Assembly (NCBI GenBank): GCA_029573725.1
Contig: JAKQDQ010000042.1
Location: 777-64,776 of the forward strand
Origin: Verrucomicrobiota bacterium
GTDB lineage: Bacteria; Verrucomicrobiota; Verrucomicrobiia; Limisphaerales; JADLHS01
Direction of reading: 5' to 3'
Length of the DNA stretch: 64,000 nucleotides
In this document: in pieces, positions 34,161-64,000 of the stretch
How the letters are laid out: each line of letters begins with the position of its first letter
How positions within the stretch are numbered: position 1 is the stretch's first letter
Program-made: the position numbers and the translations under genes
Notes under the pieces: generated by a model
What the model was told of the DNA's origin: nothing
Database searches by the model: none
What the model saw: only the letters and a program-made list of their open reading frames with translations

Positions 34161-34596
34161 CGCTGGGGGTTTTTGGCTTGGGAGCCGCCTCCATCCCGCA
34201 ACCGGGCGGTGCCGGCGGCGTCAGCAGCCGGGTCACCCAACTCCGGACCGGCGACCACCGTCGGCCGGGACGGAAACCCGGCCCGGCCCGGTGCCGCACG
34301 GAGGCGCAGGCGGCCTGTTTTTGAGGAAGGCCATGCTTGATGGGTTTCCCGTGGAGGTGACGTGAACATCGGGGCAGGTTGGATTAGCCCCCCCGGGTCG
34401 GAGTGTCCGGGTTGACGCACGTTTGACATCTGCGGGAGTGGCCCGGATGGTCAGGCACAACGCGATGCGGATCGGCCCGCTCCGGCCCGCTCCGGCGCGA
34501 GGAGGTATCTCAAGCAAACGCGCACCGTCTCGATCCGGTCAAGGCAGCAAGCGAAGCAGGAAAGCCGGTCTCTGCACGAACTTTCCGAAGAAAAAA

Positions 34597-34621
34597 TGGT
34601 CGGGGCGGTGAGATTTGAATC
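34597..34621 (-). other. tRNA 3'-end fragment (tRNA-Pro-like), putative att site of the adjacent element
   Basis: The minus strand reads GATTCAAATCTCACCGCCCCGACCA: a T-loop (TTCAAAT), the 3' T-stem, the 3' acceptor strand CGCCCCG, discriminator A and CCA. A T-run follows. No complementary 5' acceptor strand (CGGGGCG), D arm or anticodon arm lies upstream, so it is a fragment and not a gene. Confidence 0.6.
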
Positions 34622-55205: not shown

Positions 55206-56378
55206 TCACGAAACGGCGGCACGCAGCGCGTCGGCAAGATTGGAACACTGTGCCTCCCAATTTTCAGGATCGAGCATTTCTAATTCTTCGACGGCGTCGC
55301 GGATCAGCGATGGGAAATCCACCTCGCGTTCCGCGCCGGAGGCGAGCCGCTTGGCAAACTCGACGCCGGCCTGCCCCTTGATGGCTTTTCGCCAGCGCAC
55401 GAACTCGGCGAGCGCGACATACTCCTTCCCGCGTTTGCGCCACGCCGCAACCTTGGTGCGCAACGTGGAATCTTTCATGTCCAGATCGCGGCTGGCTTTG
55501 GCGACATCCCCACTGGCGAGAATCGCCAGGAACAAATCGCGCGCCTCGCGGTCAATCTTCGCCGCGAAGCCGAACAGTCCGTCGCCGTGCATCTGTTCGA
55601 TGCGCGCCTTGGCCGCGCTCAAATCCAGCTTTTGTTTCGCCACCAGTTCCATGTGCCGGTCAATCCGTTCCACGGTCTTGACCAGTCCCGGCCCGGAGGC
55701 CAGCCGTTGATCAAACGCGGCGAGCACAGCATCAATTTGCTCGTGCAACGTGAACGCGCCCGCGCCGGAAACCGCCAGCCATCGGGACAGGCCAAGCAAA
55801 AGAAAACCGTGGCGCACTTGCATCGCGCCGACAGTTTTCGAGTGATGCGCTTCCGTCGGCGTCAGCAGAACGAACGGCCCGCCCACACTTGCGACCAGTT
55901 GTTCCGACTCACCCGCCAGCGCCGCCGCATCGTGCGGAAGATGAAGAAACACTGGCAGCTTCGCCGCGCCTCGCGCCGCGATGCGCGTGGATTGCTCGCC
56001 GTTGGCACTTCCAACCGGCGACTGGAATTTCAAGGCGCGTCGCACCGCTTCGCCGAGTTTCACCACATCCACCGCCCACACGAGAACGTCGGTCGGTTGG
56101 AGTTCAATGGGTTCGCAGCTCCCGCCATCGCACTCGCACACGGCGGCCAGACGGTCGGGCGCGTGCATCACCACTCGATGCCGGCAATCGCAGGGAAACC
56201 GGTTCGTGCAGGGATGACTTGAGCTTTGCTCGCCGTTCGGATTCAGGAAAACACGCGCCGCGTCAAACTCGCTGCCGAGTTCGCGCCGCCATTCCGCCAG
56301 CACTGCTGCCGCAGTGGGCAGGGCTTCAAGACTTGTCCACAATCCCGGTTTCCGTTTCATCTGTTTCGTTGTCGTCAT
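55206..56378 (-). CDS. hypothetical protein with Cys cluster and C-terminal Fis-like HTH
   Basis: About 380-390 aa. It has HPCTNRFPCDCRH...CECDGGSC cysteines and an HTH-like segment near the C-terminus, GDVAKASRDLDMKDSTLRTKV. Its start overlaps the upstream gene by 15-53 nt. Confidence 0.5.
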   Translation of the reverse strand: MTTTKQMKRKPGLWTSLEALPTAAAVLAEWRRELGSEFDAARVFLNPNGEQSSSHPCTNRFPCDCRHRVVMHAPDRLAAVCECDGGSCEPIELQPTDVLVWAVDVVKLGEAVRRALKFQSPVGSANGEQSTRIAARGAAKLPVFLHLPHDAAALAGESEQLVASVGGPFVLLTPTEAHHSKTVGAMQVRHGFLLLGLSRWLAVSGAGAFTLHEQIDAVLAAFDQRLASGPGLVKTVERIDRHMELVAKQKLDLSAAKARIEQMHGDGLFGFAAKIDREARDLFLAILASGDVAKASRDLDMKDSTLRTKVAAWRKRGKEYVALAEFVRWRKAIKGQAGVEFAKRLASGAEREVDFPSLIRDAVEELEMLDPENWEAQCSNLADALRAAVS

Positions 56379-57522
56379 CTTCGCCGATGAAGCCGCGTTC
56401 TTTCAGCCAGTTTTCGATGATGATGCCATCGTCATCGCGTCCGTATTGCGCCTTGTTCGATGGAATGATCGTCACGCGGCGGGGTTTCTTTGATCCGGCG
56501 AATTTGATTTCAAACGTCGCCCGCTTGATGCGTTCCGGGTCTTCCGGCCAGAACAACTTTTCCTTTTCCACCAGCCCGTAGATGTCATCCGAGGCGCGCG
56601 TCACCCGCTGCCACGGTTTGCCGCCGAACAGGAATTGCACTTCCTTGAGCGTGACGCTCTCCATCCCCTCGATGTCCAGGCACGCAAGACAGCCCCGCCC
56701 CATGAGCAGCGGCTTGAGCCGGTATTTGCCCGTGCCCGGAAAAAATTCCTCCTTGCCGAACAGATGCAAGCCAAATGCCTTTCGGAACAATTCCAGTTCC
56801 CGCTTGCCGCAGCAATTCATACGGAGTTCGCCTTGCATCGTGTCATACACCACCACGTCATGCTTCTGCGGGCGGTAAAACACGCTCGACGATTCGCCTT
56901 CCACCATCGCGCTTTCTCGCTTGCATGGCAGACCGTGCCGCACCAGAAACCAACACTCGCCTTCCTTGGGAAATGGAATGACTTTGCATCCGCGCCCGCG
57001 CTTGCTTTTGGCATACCAGTCATCCAGCCGCGCTTCCAGCGCCTCAATTTGCTCCTTGCCCGGCGGCGTGAACTTGGGCGGCTCATCTCCCTCGCAGACG
57101 AAGTATTCAAACGAACGCGGGCGCGTGAGTTGATGTTCGTTGTGAAGTTCTTCGAGCAGCAGCCGGTTCAGCAGCAGGGTTTGCACAGCCACGTCCGCCG
57201 GCGACGGCTTGTCACCAACCTCCAGCGTGAACTTGCGTGGCCCTTGCGCTTCCAGAATCGCTTCCATCGCTTCATCTGTCGCCATTTCGTTCACGAGGTT
57301 GAGCGATTCCACGAGGTCGCGGGGCATGTCGGGATCGGGGTCGAGAAACACCGCCGCCAGCTTTTCCAAATCCACCGGCCCATCGGCGACGTCGGCGGGC
57401 AGCGTCACGCCGCGCGTGGCGAGGTATTCCTTTGCTGGCGTCAGCCATGTCACCAGACTGGCGGGCCGGATTTTTCCCAAGATGTCAGGATTAGTGAAGC
57501 GTCGGGTGTTCAGGTTTGGCAT
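56326..57522 (-). CDS. hypothetical protein (no recognisable family)
   Basis: 398 aa, clean non-degenerate sequence with an acidic tail. It is the first gene downstream of the WYL regulator on the same strand. Confidence 0.55.
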   Translation of the reverse strand: MPNLNTRRFTNPDILGKIRPASLVTWLTPAKEYLATRGVTLPADVADGPVDLEKLAAVFLDPDPDMPRDLVESLNLVNEMATDEAMEAILEAQGPRKFTLEVGDKPSPADVAVQTLLLNRLLLEELHNEHQLTRPRSFEYFVCEGDEPPKFTPPGKEQIEALEARLDDWYAKSKRGRGCKVIPFPKEGECWFLVRHGLPCKRESAMVEGESSSVFYRPQKHDVVVYDTMQGELRMNCCGKRELELFRKAFGLHLFGKEEFFPGTGKYRLKPLLMGRGCLACLDIEGMESVTLKEVQFLFGGKPWQRVTRASDDIYGLVEKEKLFWPEDPERIKRATFEIKFAGSKKPRRVTIIPSNKAQYGRDDDGIIIENWLKERGFIGEDDDNETDETETGIVDKS

Positions 57523-57652
57523 GTTTGTTTGGTCGGTTGCTTTCTGATTTCTTCAATCGTTCACCCCGCAGGATAGCCGGAGGGGTCTGCCAAATGCTGT
57601 CAGACCCCACGAAATAAATCAGAAAGTTGTCCTCCGTCTTTTCACGGCCAGT

Positions 57653-58666
57653 TCACCTGTCCTGCCTCATCTTCGCGTATCGCTGGTTCAATTCCGCCGT
57701 GACCTTCTCTATACGCGCGACCAGCGTTTGCGGTGCGATGACGGTCGCGTGCGTGCCCCAGCTTAACGCCCAGCGCTCCACTTCCTCGACGTTGTTCAGC
57801 CGCATCCGCAGCCTCATTTCTCCACCGGGCAGTTCGTCCACCGTCTGACTCCAATGCCAGCGCCGACCGCGCAGCAGGTCTGCCGACCATGAATCAAATT
57901 CGATGACGACTTCAAATTCATCATCCGGCTTCCCGGTGAACACGCTGAACGACCCGCGCAAGTGCCGGTCGAGATTGAAGTCCTTCGGCGCGGGAAATTT
58001 CTCATCCGTCACTTCCAGCGTCTTCATGCGTGTCAGCACAAACCCCCGGATGGCCTGCCGCGCCAGGTCATGCGCGAACAGATACCAGCGGTTGTCCACG
58101 CACGCGACGTGGTAGGGGCGCACGCTGCGACGCTCCGGCTTTTGCGCCCCCAGCTTGCGGTATTGAAACCGCACAACCCGCCGCTCCCGCACCGCCTTGA
58201 GCAATCCCTGAAAAATTTCCAGATCGGTTTCCTCCGGCGCGAACGGACGGAATGAAAACGCCCCGTCTAGCCCGCCAAAGCTGAATGACGATTCCTTGTC
58301 TAGTTGCCCCGTCAGTTTGCGGAAAGAACCTTCCAGCAGATGTTCAAACGGCGTTCCTTGATACTGGACAATCGCCTTGTGCGCCACCATCAGCGCGAAC
58401 AAATCCGCTTCCGTCACCGGCACGGATGGAAACCGGTCCACTTTTTCTGAATAGAAATATCCGTAGCGTTTCTGGTGATATTCGATCGGCAGGTTCAACC
58501 GGCACTTCATGAAATCAATGTCGCGCTTGATGGTTCGCGACGACACTTCCGTTGCCTCCGCCAGCGAGGAACAGTTCGGGAAAGCCTCGCCCTGCAATTT
58601 TTCATGGATTAACAGCATCCGCTCCAATGGCGGCCTCGAATGGAGTTGTTCGCTGACTTTTGGCAT
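57653..58666 (-). CDS. HTH-WYL-WCX transcriptional regulator (BrxR/CapW-like architecture)
   Basis: N-terminal wHTH (LAEATEVSSRTIKRDIDFM), a central WYL domain (VRFQYRK...RSVRPYHVACVDNRWYLFAHD) and a C-terminal WCX-like extension. The start is at 58666. Confidence 0.85.
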   Translation of the reverse strand: MPKVSEQLHSRPPLERMLLIHEKLQGEAFPNCSSLAEATEVSSRTIKRDIDFMKCRLNLPIEYHQKRYGYFYSEKVDRFPSVPVTEADLFALMVAHKAIVQYQGTPFEHLLEGSFRKLTGQLDKESSFSFGGLDGAFSFRPFAPEETDLEIFQGLLKAVRERRVVRFQYRKLGAQKPERRSVRPYHVACVDNRWYLFAHDLARQAIRGFVLTRMKTLEVTDEKFPAPKDFNLDRHLRGSFSVFTGKPDDEFEVVIEFDSWSADLLRGRRWHWSQTVDELPGGEMRLRMRLNNVEEVERWALSWGTHATVIAPQTLVARIEKVTAELNQRYAKMRQDR

Positions 58667-58739
58667 GGCGTGAAGATTTTTCAAAATTCTGCTCCCCGGT
58701 GACAATGGATGTCAAACCCCCTTCTGTTAAGATGGGTGC

Positions 58740-60035
58740 ATGAATTTGAACCTTCATCGCGTTCAACCCATGGCAATTCCCTTGAAACTTGACCATTTTC
58801 GGCTTCGGCGGCAATCGCAGTTGGAACAGGAACTTGCCAGCCGCCCGCTGTTCAAAAAGGTGGACGGCATGGCGGGCAAGGAATGGCGGATCAGCCAGTT
58901 GAAGCAGATTGTCAGCGGCAACCTGTTCGTGCCCGAAGGCACGATTCCCCTTTTGGACGCGGCGGTGTTGCGCATGAAGACAGTCATGCGCTTGTCGTAT
59001 CCCGTTCGAGTCTTTCTGCGACCCGATTCAGGCAACGTAACCGCCTGCCTTGCGTTTCTGGGCGCGGACACTTTGAACATTGCCGTCGCCCCCGGCCTGA
59101 TTCGGGGCGATTCGCCAGCCGCGCTTGCCTACCACTTGGCGACCGCCGCGTTCCACGGTTTGCAGCACTACCCGCAATACCTTGGGCTGTTGCTCACGCT
59201 GCGTGCGCCATTCGATTTGGAAGGCCGGCTCAAGGCGTATGAGATTTTGCGGCTCAACCGCTACGCCGCGAATTGTTTCGCGGTCGTTTGTTGTGACAGC
59301 CTGGAGATTGCCACCCGGCACGGCTTTTCAAGGGTCACCGGCATCCCGGTCACCGGAAGCAAACCGGCTTTGAATCTCGACGTTCTCGCCGGGCACGCGA
59401 TTCAGAACACCGCGTTGAACGGCGGCAATGTGCTCGACGACTATTCGCCGTTGGATCACTACGAACCGATTCTGCCCCTTGTGCTCCGCCGCTTCTTGGA
59501 GAGCGAACCGTATCGCGCCTGTCGCGGGGAAAGCGGAGGGACGCCCCGCGACCAGTTCGAGGCCGAGATTTTGGAACTCGACCGCCAGGCGTATCCGCTC
59601 ACGGAAACCATCCCCAAAATCCATGGCGAATTTGCGGCGATTGCGTCGTTGCTGGCCGCGCATTGGGTGATGGAATCGTGCGGGCCGGTGACGCAGCGGC
59701 GCGAGGAAATCCTGCTTGAGTCATTCGAGTTGGAGCGGAAGCAGCTCGACGAAATCGCCGCACAAACCGGCTGGCGGCGCGAAGGCGAAACCAGCACGAA
59801 GCAGCTTCTCGACGCGCTGTCCGGTGGCCGCGATTGGAAAAACATTCATTGCGTCCAAATAATCCGCACCGCGTTCCTGATTGCCGCCGAGGAACACCAG
59901 GGCAAGCTGCCCGACAAGGTGAAGGCGGCGTTTGTCGAAATCGGTCGGATATGCCGCCTTGAGCCGAACGAATGTAGCGCCGTGTGCGAAGTCTTGATGG
60001 AGGAGGCAATCAAGAAATCAGGCCAGACCGAATGA
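58740..60035 (+). CDS. hypothetical protein, divergent from the WYL regulator
   Basis: 431 aa (alternative start at 58770). Helical, no catalytic motif recognised. It is the first gene of the plus-strand defence-type operon. Confidence 0.5.
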   Translation: MNLNLHRVQPMAIPLKLDHFRLRRQSQLEQELASRPLFKKVDGMAGKEWRISQLKQIVSGNLFVPEGTIPLLDAAVLRMKTVMRLSYPVRVFLRPDSGNVTACLAFLGADTLNIAVAPGLIRGDSPAALAYHLATAAFHGLQHYPQYLGLLLTLRAPFDLEGRLKAYEILRLNRYAANCFAVVCCDSLEIATRHGFSRVTGIPVTGSKPALNLDVLAGHAIQNTALNGGNVLDDYSPLDHYEPILPLVLRRFLESEPYRACRGESGGTPRDQFEAEILELDRQAYPLTETIPKIHGEFAAIASLLAAHWVMESCGPVTQRREEILLESFELERKQLDEIAAQTGWRREGETSTKQLLDALSGGRDWKNIHCVQIIRTAFLIAAEEHQGKLPDKVKAAFVEIGRICRLEPNECSAVCEVLMEEAIKKSGQTE

Positions 60036-60211
60036 AACACAGGTGCGTCAACATTCCCAGAAACGACTGCTCTCCGGTGAATCCGCTGGGACGCGAACTC
60101 GCGACGCGGACACGCTGGCAGCCCGTCATGTTGACGCCGCCGATCCAGATTACATTTGTCAGTTTTCCGTGCCGCGATTATCATACACGACAAAGTCAGT
60201 CAGTTCATTCG

Positions 60212-61518
60212 ATGAACCGGATCAGTTTCTTAGACCTCTTTTGCGGATGCGGTGGGTTCAGCCTCGGAATGGAGCGGGCTGGACTTTACTGTTTGGCAGC
60301 CATTGATTTCAACCCGGAAGCCGTCGCTGTCTTCAAAGCCAATTTCCCGCATGTAACACAGGCATTGGAGCGCGACCTCACCGCTTTCTCTCCACGCGAA
60401 CTGGCGAGCTTGATTGAAACCGAAACCGTGGACGTGATTGTTGGAGGCCCGCCCTGTCAGGGATTTTCCACGGTGCGGCAGCGTGATGGCGCAAACAGTG
60501 GGCCGCGCATGGTTGAGGACAAGCGACGCCATTTGTATCAGGAATTTTTGCGCTACGTTGAATTCTTCCGACCGAAGGTGTTCGTGATGGAAAACGTGTT
60601 GGGAATCAAGTCGGCAGCCGGCGGCAAATATTTTACGCGCGTGCAGAAGGAGGCGCGAGCCATCGGCTACCGCGTCCACTCCCAGGTTGAAAAGGCGATT
60701 GAATTGGGCGTGCCGCAAAAACGCCAGCGTCAGTTGATCGTCGGCACTCGCCTTGACCTGCCCGACTATTTCCCCGGCCAGTTGAAGCCCGCACCTCGCG
60801 CTGTCGAAAAGCCGACGCTCGGCGAGGCGATTTGCGACCTTCCCCCCGTTCGTGCGGGCGGTGGCGAGGAAGAAACCGACTACGACATGCCCGGCGCATG
60901 GCCTATGTCGCCAAATATGGTCGACGTTATCTCTACGAGACGCTTGAAGTCCAACGGGCGTCGAAATTGACGGCACATCGCGCGCGCCCGCACAGCGAAC
61001 GTGATCTGCGCGATTTTGCCCGGTTGCACGAAGGCGAACACTGCGCCGAGGCGATGAAGCGCGGCGAGAAATTCGAGTTCCCCTACGACAAGGAGACGTT
61101 CAAGGATCGCTATACCCGCCAACATCGCAACGAAGCCTGCTCCACCATCGTCGCGCATTTGAGCAAGGACGGACTGATGTTCATCCATCCGACACAAAAC
61201 CGCTCGCTCACGCCGCGCGAGGCTGCCCGTGTGCAGAGTTTCCCTGACTGGTTTCAATTTCCGGTTGCCCGCACTCATCAATTCCGCGTCATTGGCAATG
61301 CAGTCCCGCCATTGGTTGCGGAGGCCATCGGATACGTCGCGAAATCCTACCTGGAGAAAACTATGAAAACACAAAAAGCAGTCCATTTCGGTTTGTCGCC
61401 GCTACCGTCCAGCCAGAAGGAAGCTGTCCAATGGCTTCTCGGCTTGGTGACGCGGCAGAGGGCAAAGCATTACAGCAATTGTCAGCCGCCGATTTTAAGC
61501 GTGGCTGGTATTCCGTAG
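60212..61518 (+). pseudogene. DNA (cytosine-5)-methyltransferase, split by a frameshift near 60880-60905
   Basis: Motifs I (DLFCGCGGFSLG), IV (GGPPCQGFS), VI (ENV) and VIII (QKRQR) are in the frame of ORF 59984..60970. Motifs IX and X (LTPREAARVQSFPDWFQF, GNAVPPLVAEAIG) are in the frame of ORF 60832..61518. The two frames overlap over 60832-60970. Confidence 0.75.
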
Positions 61519-61783
61519 GGTTTTTGTATCCCGGCCTCCACCCGGACAGCGCACTTGAGCACGGAAAGGAGTTGTGCAACGACGCCGAAGATTTTCCCGA
61601 AGTCCGCAAAGTTGAACCGCGTTTGCTCGCGCCATACTACGTTGACAGCGGTTGGCCTCGCCGTCCTCGCGTTGCTCCTGTTAATTTTCTGCCCTCGCCG
61701 CTAGACTGCGTTGCATCCCGCTCCACTCTACGTGCATCCATTTGGGATGGCGCAAACGACGTTTTCTTTGCATCATGCGCGCC

Positions 61784-63286
61784 ATGTCGCGCACTTCGTC
61801 CTCAGAATACGAGACAGTTCCACCCGAGCCAGCCGCGCTCGTGGAATCGCTGCGCGCGTTTGGATACGAACTTTCAACAGCCTTGGCCGACCTTGCCGAT
61901 AACAGCCTTTTCCACCATTCACGGCACATCACCGTTCATTTTCACTGGGCCGGGGAAAATTCTGCAATCGCCTTGGCGGATGACGGCGACGGGATGGACG
62001 AGCGCACATTGGTAAATGCGATGCGGCTTGGCAGCCGCAACCCACGCGCGCCGCGCGATCCAGGAGATTTTGGGCGGTTCGGTTTGGGGCTGAAGACCGC
62101 CTCGTTTTCCCAATGTCGCCGCGTGACGGTTTTCACGAAGCAGCACCGTAAGGAAACCCTGATTCGTTGCTGGGACTTGGATCACGTTGCCGAAACCGGC
62201 GAATGGCAACTGCTTCGAACTTCGTCGGCGCTTGCCGCGAGGCTGGCAGAAAAACTCGCCGATACGAAGCAGGGCACAGTTGTCATTTGGGAAAAACTGG
62301 ATCGGCTGACTGCCGACACCAAGACCGAGAACGATGCCGACGAGGATGCCTTCTTACGACGCGCGGAACAGGTCGGCGACCATTTCTCGGCAGTCTTCCA
62401 CCGTTTCATGAATGGAAATCGTGCTGTCGCTTTCTCCCTGAACGGCACAGCCATCCAGCCTTGGGATCCGTTCCTTGTTGATGAAGCCGCCACCCAGCGG
62501 CTTCCATTGGAGCGCCTTCGTTTTCAGGGGCATGTCGTCGAGGTCGAGCCGTTCATCCTTCCGCATCTTTCCAAGCTGGATATTTCCGCTCATCGCACCG
62601 CTGCAGGCTTGCGCGGATGGAACGCACACCAGGGATTTTACATTTACCGCAATCGCCGCCTGCTTGTTCCCGGTGACTGGCTCGGCATCAAAGGCTGGCG
62701 TCAGGAGGAACATTACAAGCTCGCCCGCATCCAGGTTGATTTGCCTAACGCACTCGATCACGAATGGGAAATTGACGTGACTAAATCGCGTGCAAGGCCG
62801 CCTGAAAAACTTCGGCGTGAACTCGTTCGCATCGGTGAAAGCACACGCAGCGTGGCAAAGCGTGTTTACTCGCATCGTGGCGCGAAGCTCGTTCCCGCCG
62901 AGGGACAGGAGCGCGTGTTCCTTTGGGAACAGACGGCGAAGCACAACCAGGTGTCCTACCGCGTCAACCGCGATCACCCACTGGTGAAACAAGTTCGCGC
63001 GGCTTGTTCCGACGCGCCGAAGTTCAGCGCGCTGATCCGGCTCATTGAGGAAACGATTCCCGTTCCACTCATCACCATCACGGATCGGGAAAAGCCAGAC
63101 CAGACCATCGGCCCGTTTGAAACCTCGAAAGAGTCGGAAATTCTTGAAGTCATGCGGCAGGTATTCGCCTCGCTCCGCGCCAGCGGACTGTCGCGCAGGG
63201 AAGCCTTGTTGCGCCTTGCCCACTTCGAGCCGTTTCCGCGCTTTCCAGAATTGCTCCAAACCATCCAGGAGGAAGATGAACCATGA
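61784..63286 (+). CDS. GHKL (HATPase_c_3) MORC-like ATPase
   Basis: N-box LADLADNS, G1 box DDGDGM and G2 box GRFGLGLKTAS of the Bergerat fold. About 500 aa. The start is at 61784 or 61775. Confidence 0.75.
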   Translation: MSRTSSSEYETVPPEPAALVESLRAFGYELSTALADLADNSLFHHSRHITVHFHWAGENSAIALADDGDGMDERTLVNAMRLGSRNPRAPRDPGDFGRFGLGLKTASFSQCRRVTVFTKQHRKETLIRCWDLDHVAETGEWQLLRTSSALAARLAEKLADTKQGTVVIWEKLDRLTADTKTENDADEDAFLRRAEQVGDHFSAVFHRFMNGNRAVAFSLNGTAIQPWDPFLVDEAATQRLPLERLRFQGHVVEVEPFILPHLSKLDISAHRTAAGLRGWNAHQGFYIYRNRRLLVPGDWLGIKGWRQEEHYKLARIQVDLPNALDHEWEIDVTKSRARPPEKLRRELVRIGESTRSVAKRVYSHRGAKLVPAEGQERVFLWEQTAKHNQVSYRVNRDHPLVKQVRAACSDAPKFSALIRLIEETIPVPLITITDREKPDQTIGPFETSKESEILEVMRQVFASLRASGLSRREALLRLAHFEPFPRFPELLQTIQEEDEP

Positions 63287-64000
63287 GTGATGCTTTCAGT
63301 AAAGCCCGCGCGATTGCCGTGACGCTCTTAAACACCGAGCCGTTGCGGACGCCGGAGGTGATTCACGCCCAGGTTCAGAAGGCCATCTCCATCATCCCCG
63401 GCCTGACGGCGGAAGATGGCGAGGCACTTGTCGCCCAACTGATGCACGAGGCCAATGTCTTTGTGCCTGATGCAACCTTGATGGATGACCCAACCGACCA
63501 CATCGAATGGCTTCCAACCAAGCGCGCGGTGATTCAGGAAAAGCAGGGCTGGAAATTTTGGAATCGCTACAAGGAATTTCTGGAAAAGGACAAGAAGCTT
63601 CCCGAACCGGTCGTGAGCGCCCTTGGAAAACTCACCGATGATATTCTCGGCAAGCTCGAAGACCCCGAACGAACACCGTCATGGGATTGTCGCGGCATGG
63701 TTGTCGGCAGCGTGCAGTCTGGCAAGACCGCCAACTACTGCGGCCTCATCTGCAAGGCGATTGACTCCGGCTATCGGCTGGTCGTGGTGCTCGCCGGGAT
63801 GCACAACAATCTTCGCAGCCAGACGCAATACCGTCTCGACGAAGGCGTGCTTGGGCGCGACAGCCAGAAAGACCGCCAGCTTGACCAGACGACAAGTTTG
63901 ATTGGCGTCGGAAAACTTTTCGGCCAGTTGCTACCCGTTCACACACTCACAAGCAGTCTGGACGATGGCGACTTTCGCGCGCCCAAGGCCGACACAGGCG
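63283..64000 (+). CDS. Z1 domain protein (3' end lies outside the window)
   Basis: The ATG overlaps the upstream stop (ATGA). GSVQSGKTANYCGLICKAIDSGYRLVVVLAGMHNNLRSQTQYRLDEG is the characteristic Z1 P-loop region. The frame stays open to the window end and is not in the supplied ORF track because it has no stop. Confidence 0.8.
   Translation, partial: MSDAFSKARAIAVTLLNTEPLRTPEVIHAQVQKAISIIPGLTAEDGEALVAQLMHEANVFVPDATLMDDPTDHIEWLPTKRAVIQEKQGWKFWNRYKEFLEKDKKLPEPVVSALGKLTDDILGKLEDPERTPSWDCRGMVVGSVQSGKTANYCGLICKAIDSGYRLVVVLAGMHNNLRSQTQYRLDEGVLGRDSQKDRQLDQTTSLIGVGKLFGQLLPVHTLTSSLDDGDFRAPKADTG

Follow-up and report, generated by a model that had tools for sequence, protein, structure and literature searches.

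At the right-hand end of a 64,000-nucleotide (nt) stretch of contig JAKQDQ010000042.1, from a Verrucomicrobiota bacterium (assembly GCA_029573725.1) and here called the window, a gene for a WYL-type transcription factor lies back to back with a plus-strand series of genes for a 431-amino-acid (aa) protein, a Dcm-type C5-methyltransferase (Dcm1), a GHKL ATPase of the MORC/MutL type, and a Z1 protein. Which system do these genes make up, and are the 431-aa protein and the WYL regulator parts of it? An original prediction, made from the letters of the window, had taken them for an essentially uncharacterised restriction-modification-like operon, with the first gene and the WYL regulator as possible new components or controllers. 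Our analysis points to a different arrangement. We consider it probable that the locus has two layers, in which an Mza-type operon with its own methylase is the swappable cargo of an integrated phage-like element and the 431-aa gene is tied to the WYL regulator.

An Mza-type operon as exchangeable cargo

Longer contigs were obtained by exact-protein look-ups in JGI, Logan, and NCBI assemblies, and one further contig (L014) came from a metagenome scan. Nine fetched stretches (L001 to L008 and L014, from at least seven different records) were 100% identical to the window over 2.7 to 15 kb, and they confirmed that the operon continues past the window's end. Positions beyond the window are given on contig L007, where coordinate plus 51783 equals the window-equivalent position. 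The GHKL ATPase gene (500 aa, 61784-63286, plus strand) lies within the window and ends in the predicted ATGA coupling, as the start of the Z1 gene at 63283 overlaps its stop codon. The window holds only the N-terminal 239 residues of the Z1 protein (63283-64000, plus strand); the full protein has 969 aa (L007 11500-14409, to window-equivalent 66192). Downstream of it are genes for a DUF4420 protein with a PD-(D/E)XK nuclease fold (L007 14399-15427), an AIPR protein (L007 15420-17453), a second, intact methyltransferase of 512 aa (Dcm2; L007 17472-19010), and Vsr (L007 19457-19849), so that the AIPR, endonuclease, and Vsr genes expected on extension were all found.

The core of this operon is recognised by standard defence annotators. 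PADLOC matched the four core proteins to MzaB (4.8e-109, model positions 7-493 of 500), MzaC (2.3e-181, and 4e-44 for the in-window fragment alone), MzaD (2.7e-29), and MzaE (3.3e-91). The NCBIfam Mza models matched at 2e-130 to 3e-53 (MzaB, 2.2e-130), with bit scores of 435 for MzaB, 749 for MzaC, 181 for MzaD, and 389 for MzaE against cut-offs of 850, 1500, 420, and 1050, respectively. Pfam gave HATPase_c_3 (1.6e-27), Z1 (9.5e-85), DUF4420 (1.3e-74), AIPR_N plus AIPR (1.8e-99), DNA_methylase, and Vsr. The ATPase motifs DNS, DDGDGM, and GRFGLGLK are present in the GHKL protein, as first read. MzaC keeps Walker A, DEAD, YTATP, and QMGRWFGYR (QxxGRxxR), and MzaD keeps D...EVK. The description of a Z1-domain P-loop protein held for the P-loop (GSVQSGKT), which is in the window; the Pfam Z1 domain itself lies beyond it, at residues 425-660 of 969. 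MzaA was not matched when PADLOC was run on the WYL protein, the 431-aa protein, both Dcm1 halves, 398-aa and 390-aa proteins encoded beyond the WYL gene, the small open reading frame (ORF) after Dcm2, a 68-aa ORF, and the integrase, nor was it matched by NCBIfam, the only library used for this purpose on the small ORF after Dcm1.

By these profile matches, MzaB to MzaE are homologous to the validated proteins of Salmonella and Escherichia coli and form a different subfamily. The mzaABCDE genes are a validated anti-phage system; the E. coli system restricts T4, purified MzaD cuts DNA in vitro, and MzaA, described as a sigma factor, is found in only a few related systems. The GHKL, SF2 helicase, RE-fold nuclease, Dcm, and Vsr neighbourhood had already been predicted to act in restriction-modification in 2008 (Iyer, Abhiman and Aravind). 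The proposed module of MORC/paraMORC-type GHKL ATPase, Z1 protein, and methyltransferase with restriction-modification character is thus supported, whereas its description as essentially uncharacterised is outdated, since the system has a name, PADLOC and NCBIfam models, and some experimental validation. The GHKL/Z1/DUF4420/AIPR/Dcm/Vsr set is therefore no discovery; judged from sequence, the operon is a diverged, methylase-linked relative of the known Mza system, a new member rather than a new system.

The reading of all these genes as one operon held in part. From MzaB through Dcm2, neighbouring genes overlap by 4 to 11 nt (8 to 11 nt among MzaC, MzaD, and MzaE) or stand 18 nt apart. Between the 431-aa gene and Dcm1, however, lie 176 nt of spacer that include a good promoter-like site (60156-60184, plus strand; TTGTCA-17-TATCAT, 10 of 12 matches), and a gap of about 260 nt precedes the GHKL gene.

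The genomic contexts of the 431-aa gene (58740-60035, plus strand) indicate where the cargo begins. In the window and its nine identical stretches, this gene is divergent from the WYL gene (which L014 does not cover) and is followed by Dcm1, MzaB to MzaE, Dcm2, and Vsr. A homologue of 91% identity (L013), on the same element backbone and also divergent from a WYL gene, is followed by the Druantia genes DruF, DruL, and DruE, and DNA homology to the window stops at 60037, just after the 431-aa stop codon. Behind a homologue of 89% identity (L018, a contig that starts within the gene) lies DISARM (DrmA, 1e-208, and DrmB), and homology stops at 60216, the Dcm1 start. The spacer between the 431-aa gene and Dcm1 is kept in this DISARM-carrying relative; the spacer and its promoter-like site are therefore part of the conserved module and not of the cargo. 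Four contigs (L009 to L012) with a homologue of 68% identity have only 57667-60005, the WYL and 431-aa genes, in common with the window and differ in their flanks on both sides; here the pair is followed by genes for a Metallophos protein and an SMC-like protein. This last cargo (L009 3019-6836) encodes the Metallophos protein and a 900-aa SMC/AAA_23 ATPase with weak PADLOC matches (LmuB, 7e-16), and it may be an unclassified SbcCD-like defence pair.

The remaining homologues are more distant. At 45% identity (L016), the gene is divergent from a WYL gene (77.7% identical) and followed by a 198-aa unknown gene. One of 34% (L020), also beside a divergent WYL gene, has a PIN7 gene downstream and Wadjet JetABCD on the WYL side; another of 34% (L103) lies at a contig end, with a variant operator and a convergent Metallophos_2 gene. 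The neighbour of a homologue of about 33% (L104) is a 100-aa partial gene that is not WYL, and the contig ends on the other side. A homologue of about 32% (L021) has no WYL gene and has Dcm and HNH genes nearby, and the most divergent one (L017; 16 to 28%, depending on the alignment) stands beside a LysR gene, beyond which lies a gene for an AAA_22-type ATPase. The 34% homologue on L020 (1-21296) lies in surroundings rich in defence genes, with an SNF2 helicase alongside JetABCD on the WYL side and, on the other side, a PIN7/NYN protein, an AddAB-like UvrD plus PD-(D/E)XK pair, and an ARPP-1 gene. The DNA upstream of the homologue on L021 (880-1340) holds no complete gene but appears to encode the C-terminal part of a tyrosine recombinase (...FRHYRELV...), which suggests that this copy of the family also lies at the edge of a mobile element.

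Protein-pattern scans for further relatives of the 431-aa protein found none in genome contigs or viral contigs, and the same scan of metagenomes gave two loci only, both copies of sequence already retrieved. Conserved linkage of the 431-aa family to paraMORC-Z1 genes, which the original prediction had proposed to look for, was not found. Judged by these neighbourhoods, the 431-aa gene belongs with the WYL regulator and not with Mza.

The WYL operator and the 431-aa protein

The WYL protein (337 aa, 57653-58666, minus strand; ATG start kept in relatives) has an HTH-WYL-WCX architecture, with Pfam matches to HTH_11 (7.8e-6), WYL (3.5e-19), and WCX (5.7e-12). Its nearest solved relatives are PafBC (2e-18), DriD (1.6e-9), BrxR (2.6e-5), and CapW (8e-5). 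As had been noted, 73 bp (58667-58739) separate it from the 431-aa ORF, in which family conservation begins at an alternative start at 58770 (MAIP...). Alignment of this spacer among relatives revealed a putative 21-nt palindromic operator at 58700-58720 (TGACA-N5-TGTCA-AACCCC, with CCCC-N2 in front of it), which is kept while the surrounding spacer diverges and whose 5-bp arms are too short for a repeat search. Exactly one exact copy was present in each of the 16 fetched loci containing the WYL/431-aa spacer, those with the 45% and 34% homologues included. In a promoter scan, the right half of the operator, read on the minus strand, gave the WYL promoter a perfect -35 hexamer (TTGACA). In the other direction, a plus-strand TAnnnT hexamer lies 12 to 14 nt past the operator and 6 to 7 nt before the ATG of the 431-aa gene, suggesting a leaderless transcript from a promoter without a normal -35 element.

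The operator also occurs without the 431-aa gene. A scan of 185,579 species genomes with the 21-mer gave 75 matches, 6 of them about 40 nt from a WYL orthologue (five orthologues 54 to 58% identical and one, L083, about 31%), and none of these six loci had a 431-aa homologue. Over all the loci compared, the operator is kept across WYL orthologues of 54 to 100% identity, among them orthologues of 54 to 78% in other loci. We therefore assign the operator to the WYL factor, with the 431-aa gene as an optional first gene. A scan of viral contigs gave four operator matches, none with a WYL or 431-aa homologue. Among the loci whose WYL orthologues have the same TGACA-N5-TGTCAAACCCC operator (L057, L033 3152-5103, L096, L068, L070, and L083), one (L057 3947-8000) has the WYL gene and operator divergent from BREX brxA, brxB, and brxC, with a second palindrome, GTGAC-N6-GTCAC, about 60 nt downstream of the first. 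The metagenome-assembled genomes that hold such loci are labelled Verrucomicrobiota, Methylomirabilota, Planctomycetota and, oddly, Bifidobacterium. Two palindromes with one mismatch occur in the window, at 57588-57602 in the spacer upstream of the 398-aa gene and at 61470-61484, about 300 nt upstream of the GHKL gene. We rejected these as extra operators, as their number is at chance level (0.99 expected; 8 of 100 shuffles had at least three).

The position of the operator makes autorepression of the WYL gene by occlusion of its -35 element the simplest reading, and the sign of regulation is left either way. In the literature, PafBC and DriD are described as activators responsive to single-stranded DNA (ssDNA) and BrxR and CapW as repressors, with ssDNA ligand control of DNA binding known for CapW and DriD. 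A controlling role for the WYL protein, as originally suggested, is plausible, but it would be a generic one, since several unrelated defence systems have this WYL-plus-operator unit in front of them.

The 431-aa protein had been assigned to no known family, and it indeed has no Pfam, PADLOC, or NCBIfam match. An exhaustive profile (hidden Markov model) search was needed to collect its family, as a word-indexed protein search gave only three or four relatives; the profile search recovered 46 representative clusters among 1.84 billion proteins. Searched against PDB sequences, the family profile gave chance-level matches only. The most remote member (P0048) has Pfam matches to Peptidase_M48 (4.6e-19) and TerB (2.6e-8), and hhalign aligned the profile of the other 24 members with it over 375 columns (probability 97.9%, E 6e-13). 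Where P0048 has HEIGH and EVTAD, the window protein has TAAFH and RYAAN; HExxH and ExxAD are kept in none of the 24 aligned members, and the only invariant positions across the family are R171 and Y175. An AF2 model built on a 25-sequence alignment (predicted local distance difference test score, 89; predicted template modeling score, 0.90) is mostly helical with one three-stranded sheet; with a four-sequence alignment, the former score was 40 and the model was unusable. The top Foldseek matches were BepA, BlaR1, ZMPSTE24, and viral M48 peptidases, all of them weak (E 0.07 to 0.4, template modeling score about 0.2) in both libraries. We assign the protein a putative, inactive M48-like zincin domain (about residues 65 to 260) and a TerB-like helical C-terminal domain (about 300 to 425). 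From the profile alignment and the lost motifs, we conclude that the protein is a pseudo-enzyme, probably a catalytically dead M48-like zincin with a TerB-like domain. It would then be a generic accessory outside the Mza machine, and a role in binding or sensing, or in dampening toxicity, is speculative.

These results bear on the suggestion that, in the 431-aa protein and the WYL regulator, this MORC/Z1 system has new components or controllers dedicated to it. In its favour, the 431-aa gene adjoins the operon on the same strand, no terminator-like site separates it from Dcm1, and canonical Mza has a regulatory first gene, mzaA, in a comparable position. Against this stand the homologues before Druantia, DISARM, and the SbcCD-like pair, with homology that breaks at the stop codon or 180 nt past it. 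Moreover, neither gene lies within 10 kb on either side of the Mza-like operons of Agrobacterium and Hymenobacter plasmids, and tblastn with the 431-aa protein found no match among 72,556 plasmids and 50,697 phage records. We therefore regard this suggestion as highly improbable, and as a new Mza component the protein is contradicted by the cargo that its closest homologues precede. A second explanation is that the pair is a two-gene defence or abortive-infection unit of its own, with the WYL protein as the sensor of infection or DNA damage and the 431-aa protein as the effector. As L009 to L012 show, the pair does move as a discrete unit, two homologues (L016 and L103) have no large defence cargo behind them, and the family is found in defence-rich surroundings (Wadjet, and the Dcm and HNH pair). 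However, an effector would sit uneasily with a family that has no conserved catalytic residues and in which no nuclease, NADase, or pore-like domain was found, WYL orthologues with the same operator do without the 431-aa gene, distant family members have a LysR regulator or none, and the contigs without downstream cargo are mostly just short. We consider an independent two-gene unit unlikely, and we continue to favour a front end tied to the WYL regulator, behind which the Mza-type operon is one of several cargoes.

Two methylases in a phage-like element

Dcm1 had been read as a single ORF, and this did not hold. A frame change at about 60890 to 60930 splits it into an N-terminal part with motifs I to VIII (FCGCGG, PPCQ, ENV, and QRQR; 60212-60970, plus strand; PF00145 positions 2-167, E 2.4e-45), which runs into an out-of-frame tail after about 60895, and a C-terminal part in the -1 frame with the target-recognition region and motifs IX and X (REAARVQSFPD and GNAVPP; ATG at 60898 to 61518, plus strand; PF00145 positions 240-320, E 1.1e-17). 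In tblastn searches with four homologous methyltransferases, the first frame aligned to about 60901 and the -1 frame from about 60931. Sequencing or assembly error is ruled out, as the break is common to the nine identical stretches and JGI, Logan, NCBI, and other assemblies agree on the sequence. Three other explanations were rejected. Programmed -1 frameshifting finds no slippery heptamer or homopolymer run at 60885-60900. A long, ATGA-coupled Dcm1 starting at 60032 is unlikely because 60036-60216 is kept as a noncoding spacer in the DISARM-carrying relative. Finally, Dcm1 is not leftover DISARM or Druantia cargo, since it has no DNA homology to those loci past 60216.

Dcm2, in contrast, has motifs I, IV, VI, VIII, IX, and X, and it scores 138.7 with TIGR00675 (cut-off, 100.65); Vsr scores 100.8 with TIGR00632 (cut-off, 97.85). 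Over its full length, Dcm2 is 46.8% identical to the Dcm encoded immediately before the GHKL gene of Agrobacterium plasmid pDG3-1d, whereas Dcm1 is only 29% identical to it. This identity falls in the range for MzaB to MzaE (36 to 47%; MzaB, 47%), so we take Dcm2 and Vsr to be the cognate modification module, moved to the 3' end, and by the same comparison Dcm1, which heads the cargo, is an additional methylase unrelated to them. A small ORF follows each methylase, at 61431-61700 (plus strand, status uncertain) after Dcm1 and at about L007 19051-19425 after Dcm2. Both contain the motif W-x-S-x-x-[YF]-L-[FY]-P-G-L-H-P-D and are 45% identical over 31 aa by BLASTP (E 1e-7) and 30% over 69 aa by tblastn. 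Neither matched a known family, with Pfam and NCBIfam searched for the one after Dcm1. These ORFs may be an unrecognised methylase accessory or a remnant.

The whole locus lies in an integrated element. A 38-nt repeat at 34582-34619, the core of the left attachment site (attL), equals the sequence that overlaps the 3' end of a tRNA-Pro(CGG) gene (L007 21427-21504, minus strand) next to a tyrosine integrase gene (L007 20059-21363, minus strand; Phage_integrase); blastn aligned L007 21389-21449 with 34558-34619. The element thus delimited at tRNA-Pro runs from window position 34582 to L007 21449 (window-equivalent 73232), about 38.7 kb, and cumulative GC skew turns at about 34 kb, matching its left border. 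PHROGs identified small and large terminase subunits, portal, scaffold, major head protein, head-tail adaptor, primase/helicase, and exonuclease. It found no tail (tape-measure or baseplate) or lysis genes, and only about 1.6 kb lies between the adaptor gene and attL. By its gene content, the element resembles either a satellite that forms capsids or a defective prophage without a tail. The defence cargo takes up roughly its final 15 kb, beside the integrase gene, and in the relatives compared this position behaves as a defence hotspot where cargo is swapped. Two overlapping minus-strand genes of 390 and 398 aa (55206-56378 and 56326-57522), which have no Pfam, PADLOC, or PHROG match, lie directly downstream of the WYL gene. 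Both belong to the element backbone, as they are kept at 92% DNA identity in the Druantia-carrying relative.

The broken methylase admits more than one explanation. The one frame change, in the proximal variable region, is the sole defect of Dcm1, which is most likely a fresh pseudogene. It might instead be a functional two-polypeptide C5-methyltransferase of the M.AquI type that gives the element a second methylation specificity. The break lies between motif VIII and the target-recognition region, at the same position where M.AquI, a natural two-polypeptide enzyme, is split and where M.SssI fragments complement each other. Both halves are otherwise stop-free and keep all catalytic motifs, and the in-frame ATG at 60898, which one gene caller uses, could start a second polypeptide. 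On the other hand, alignments with homologues run across the junction almost without interruption, which is what the loss of a single base from a once-continuous gene would give, and no ribosome-binding site is evident before 60898; these two points led us to judge a pseudogene likelier. In addition, all copies are identical and give no sign of upkeep by selection, and the Mza genes have their cognate methylase in Dcm2. A two-subunit Dcm1 is thus possible but doubtful. Taken further, the frame change might reflect general erosion, with the locus as a decaying, nonfunctional relic in a defective prophage, and the lack of recognisable tail and lysis genes would fit that picture. We think this very unlikely, as the ORFs for MzaB to MzaE, Dcm2, Vsr, the WYL protein, the 431-aa protein, and the integrase are intact, with family models matched over their full length, the gene overlaps in the Mza operon are kept, and the element was recovered in identical form from many independent samples (18 contigs, one of them seen in 15 samples). 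A recent lesion in one extra methylase, in an otherwise intact Mza-type cargo, remains the reading that we prefer.

A two-layer model and its relation to known systems

We infer the following division of labour from the precedents of the CglI DEAD-Z1 protein, the MutL and paraMORC models, the nuclease activity of MzaD, and BrxR, CapW, and DriD. The first layer would be the cargo, from 60212 to about window-equivalent 71.6 kb, acting as an Mza-type, restriction-modification-like anti-phage system. Dcm2 would mark host DNA with 5-methylcytosine, and Vsr would repair the T:G mismatches that arise from its deamination, limiting the mutagenic cost. MzaB and MzaC would spend ATP in looping or translocating unmarked DNA and deliver it to the nuclease MzaD, with MzaE (AIPR) as a recognition or effector subunit. 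The second layer would be a portable front end (57653-60216), in which the WYL protein binds the palindromic operator that overlaps both divergent promoters. There it would repress its own gene and gate the first downstream gene and, by read-through, whatever defence cargo lies behind, and it would release or activate transcription on an infection or DNA-damage cue. The 431-aa protein, encoded by the first gene from the operator promoter, might, speculatively, be a nonenzymatic binder that modulates the switch or buffers the toxicity of the cargo. A more specific version holds that the WYL factor and the dead M48/TerB protein form a cargo-independent front end in which the pseudo-protease is a sensor or decoy, whose binding partner might for instance be a phage protein, the substrate of a protease, or the WYL factor, and decides cargo expression together with the WYL ligand signal. 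This we offer only tentatively, as an unlikely reading.

Several points weigh against the two-layer reading. Only about ten contexts of the 431-aa family were retrieved, several of them on short contigs. The NCBIfam scores below the equivalog cut-offs and the missing MzaA mean that the system may behave differently from the validated one. The nine stretches with the exact cargo are all 100% identical, which makes selection on any gene, the Dcm1 halves included, unmeasurable. The structural likeness of the 431-aa model to M48 and M56 proteases is weak (Foldseek E about 0.1, template modeling score about 0.2), and its M48 homology rests on profile comparison with one remote member. Finally, activation by the WYL protein appears as plausible as repression, because the protein is closer to the activators PafBC and DriD and the divergent promoter has no good -35 element.

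With the core gene set already known, interest shifts to the split Dcm1 and to the front end of the cargo-swapping hotspot, with its WYL factor, operator, and dead M48-like protein. The locus is a clean natural example of defence cargo being exchanged at a fixed site, with Mza, Druantia, and DISARM behind the same two genes at 89 to 100% protein identity. The sharply conserved WYL operator could be used for finding WYL-controlled islands, with 6 of its 75 matches in the genome scan beside a WYL orthologue. The 431-aa proteins are a rare family, unmatched in the libraries searched, that appears to descend from an M48 protease with TerB, to have lost catalysis, and to travel with WYL regulators; if the sensor or decoy reading were true, they would be a new class of defence-island accessory protein, a dead enzyme serving as an immune regulator. 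Dcm1, for its part, is a C5-methylase split exactly where natural two-subunit methylases are split. The operator, the protein family, and the split methylase bear on the regulation of defence islands, a poorly understood matter.

How does the locus compare with systems already described? The regulator shares its HTH-WYL-WCX architecture with BrxR, CapW, PafBC, and DriD, and regulators of the BrxR/CapW type likewise stand upstream of diverse defence systems. The likeness to BrxR extends to an inverted-repeat operator with a 5-bp spacer, and an orthologue with the window's operator precedes BREX. The putative site here has arms of 5 bp, compared to 11 bp for BrxR, and by sequence BrxR and CapW are more distant from the WYL protein than PafBC and DriD are. 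In one lineage it has the 431-aa partner, whereas the BrxR paper makes no mention of such a partner (peptidase or TerB). That partner resembles M48 (BepA, HtpX, and Ste24) and M56 (BlaR1) proteases through its profile homology to a protein with Pfam M48 and TerB matches; it differs from them in the loss of the HExxH and ExxAD residues and in having no Pfam match itself. M48 genes of unknown role have been reported as passengers of defence islands (the RptR-RMS-DarTG-M48 island), and in this respect the 431-aa gene is in known company.

For the cargo, the Mza system of Salmonella and E. coli shares with the locus its four core proteins and their order, with full-length model matches. The validated system is described without a methylase, whereas Dcm and Vsr give the operon here a restriction-modification character; no MzaA was found here by the searches listed above, and the scores are about half the NCBIfam equivalog cut-offs. 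In the restriction enzymes CglI and NgoAVII, a DEAD-Z1 helicase-like ATPase (the H-subunit) is likewise encoded with a nuclease and a C5-methylase. Among the papers retrieved, no other Z1 protein has a biochemical role described for it, that of CglI being a double-stranded DNA translocase that activates nuclease cleavage. In place of the CglI R-subunit, the Z1 protein here is partnered by a GHKL ATPase, a DUF4420 nuclease, and AIPR, and the likeness is drawn from published descriptions. The closest annotated relative that we found is the MORC/paraMORC operon of Agrobacterium salinitolerans plasmid pDG3-1d, with genes for Vsr, a Dcm overlapping the GHKL gene, Z1, PD-(D/E)XK, and AIPR proteins. 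It has the same gene set, Dcm and Vsr included, at 36 to 47% identity for every component. On pDG3-1d, the cognate Dcm and Vsr are at the 5' end, whereas here they are at the 3' end and the extra, split Dcm1 takes the 5' position; and here the operon lies behind the WYL/431-aa module, within an integrative phage-like element.

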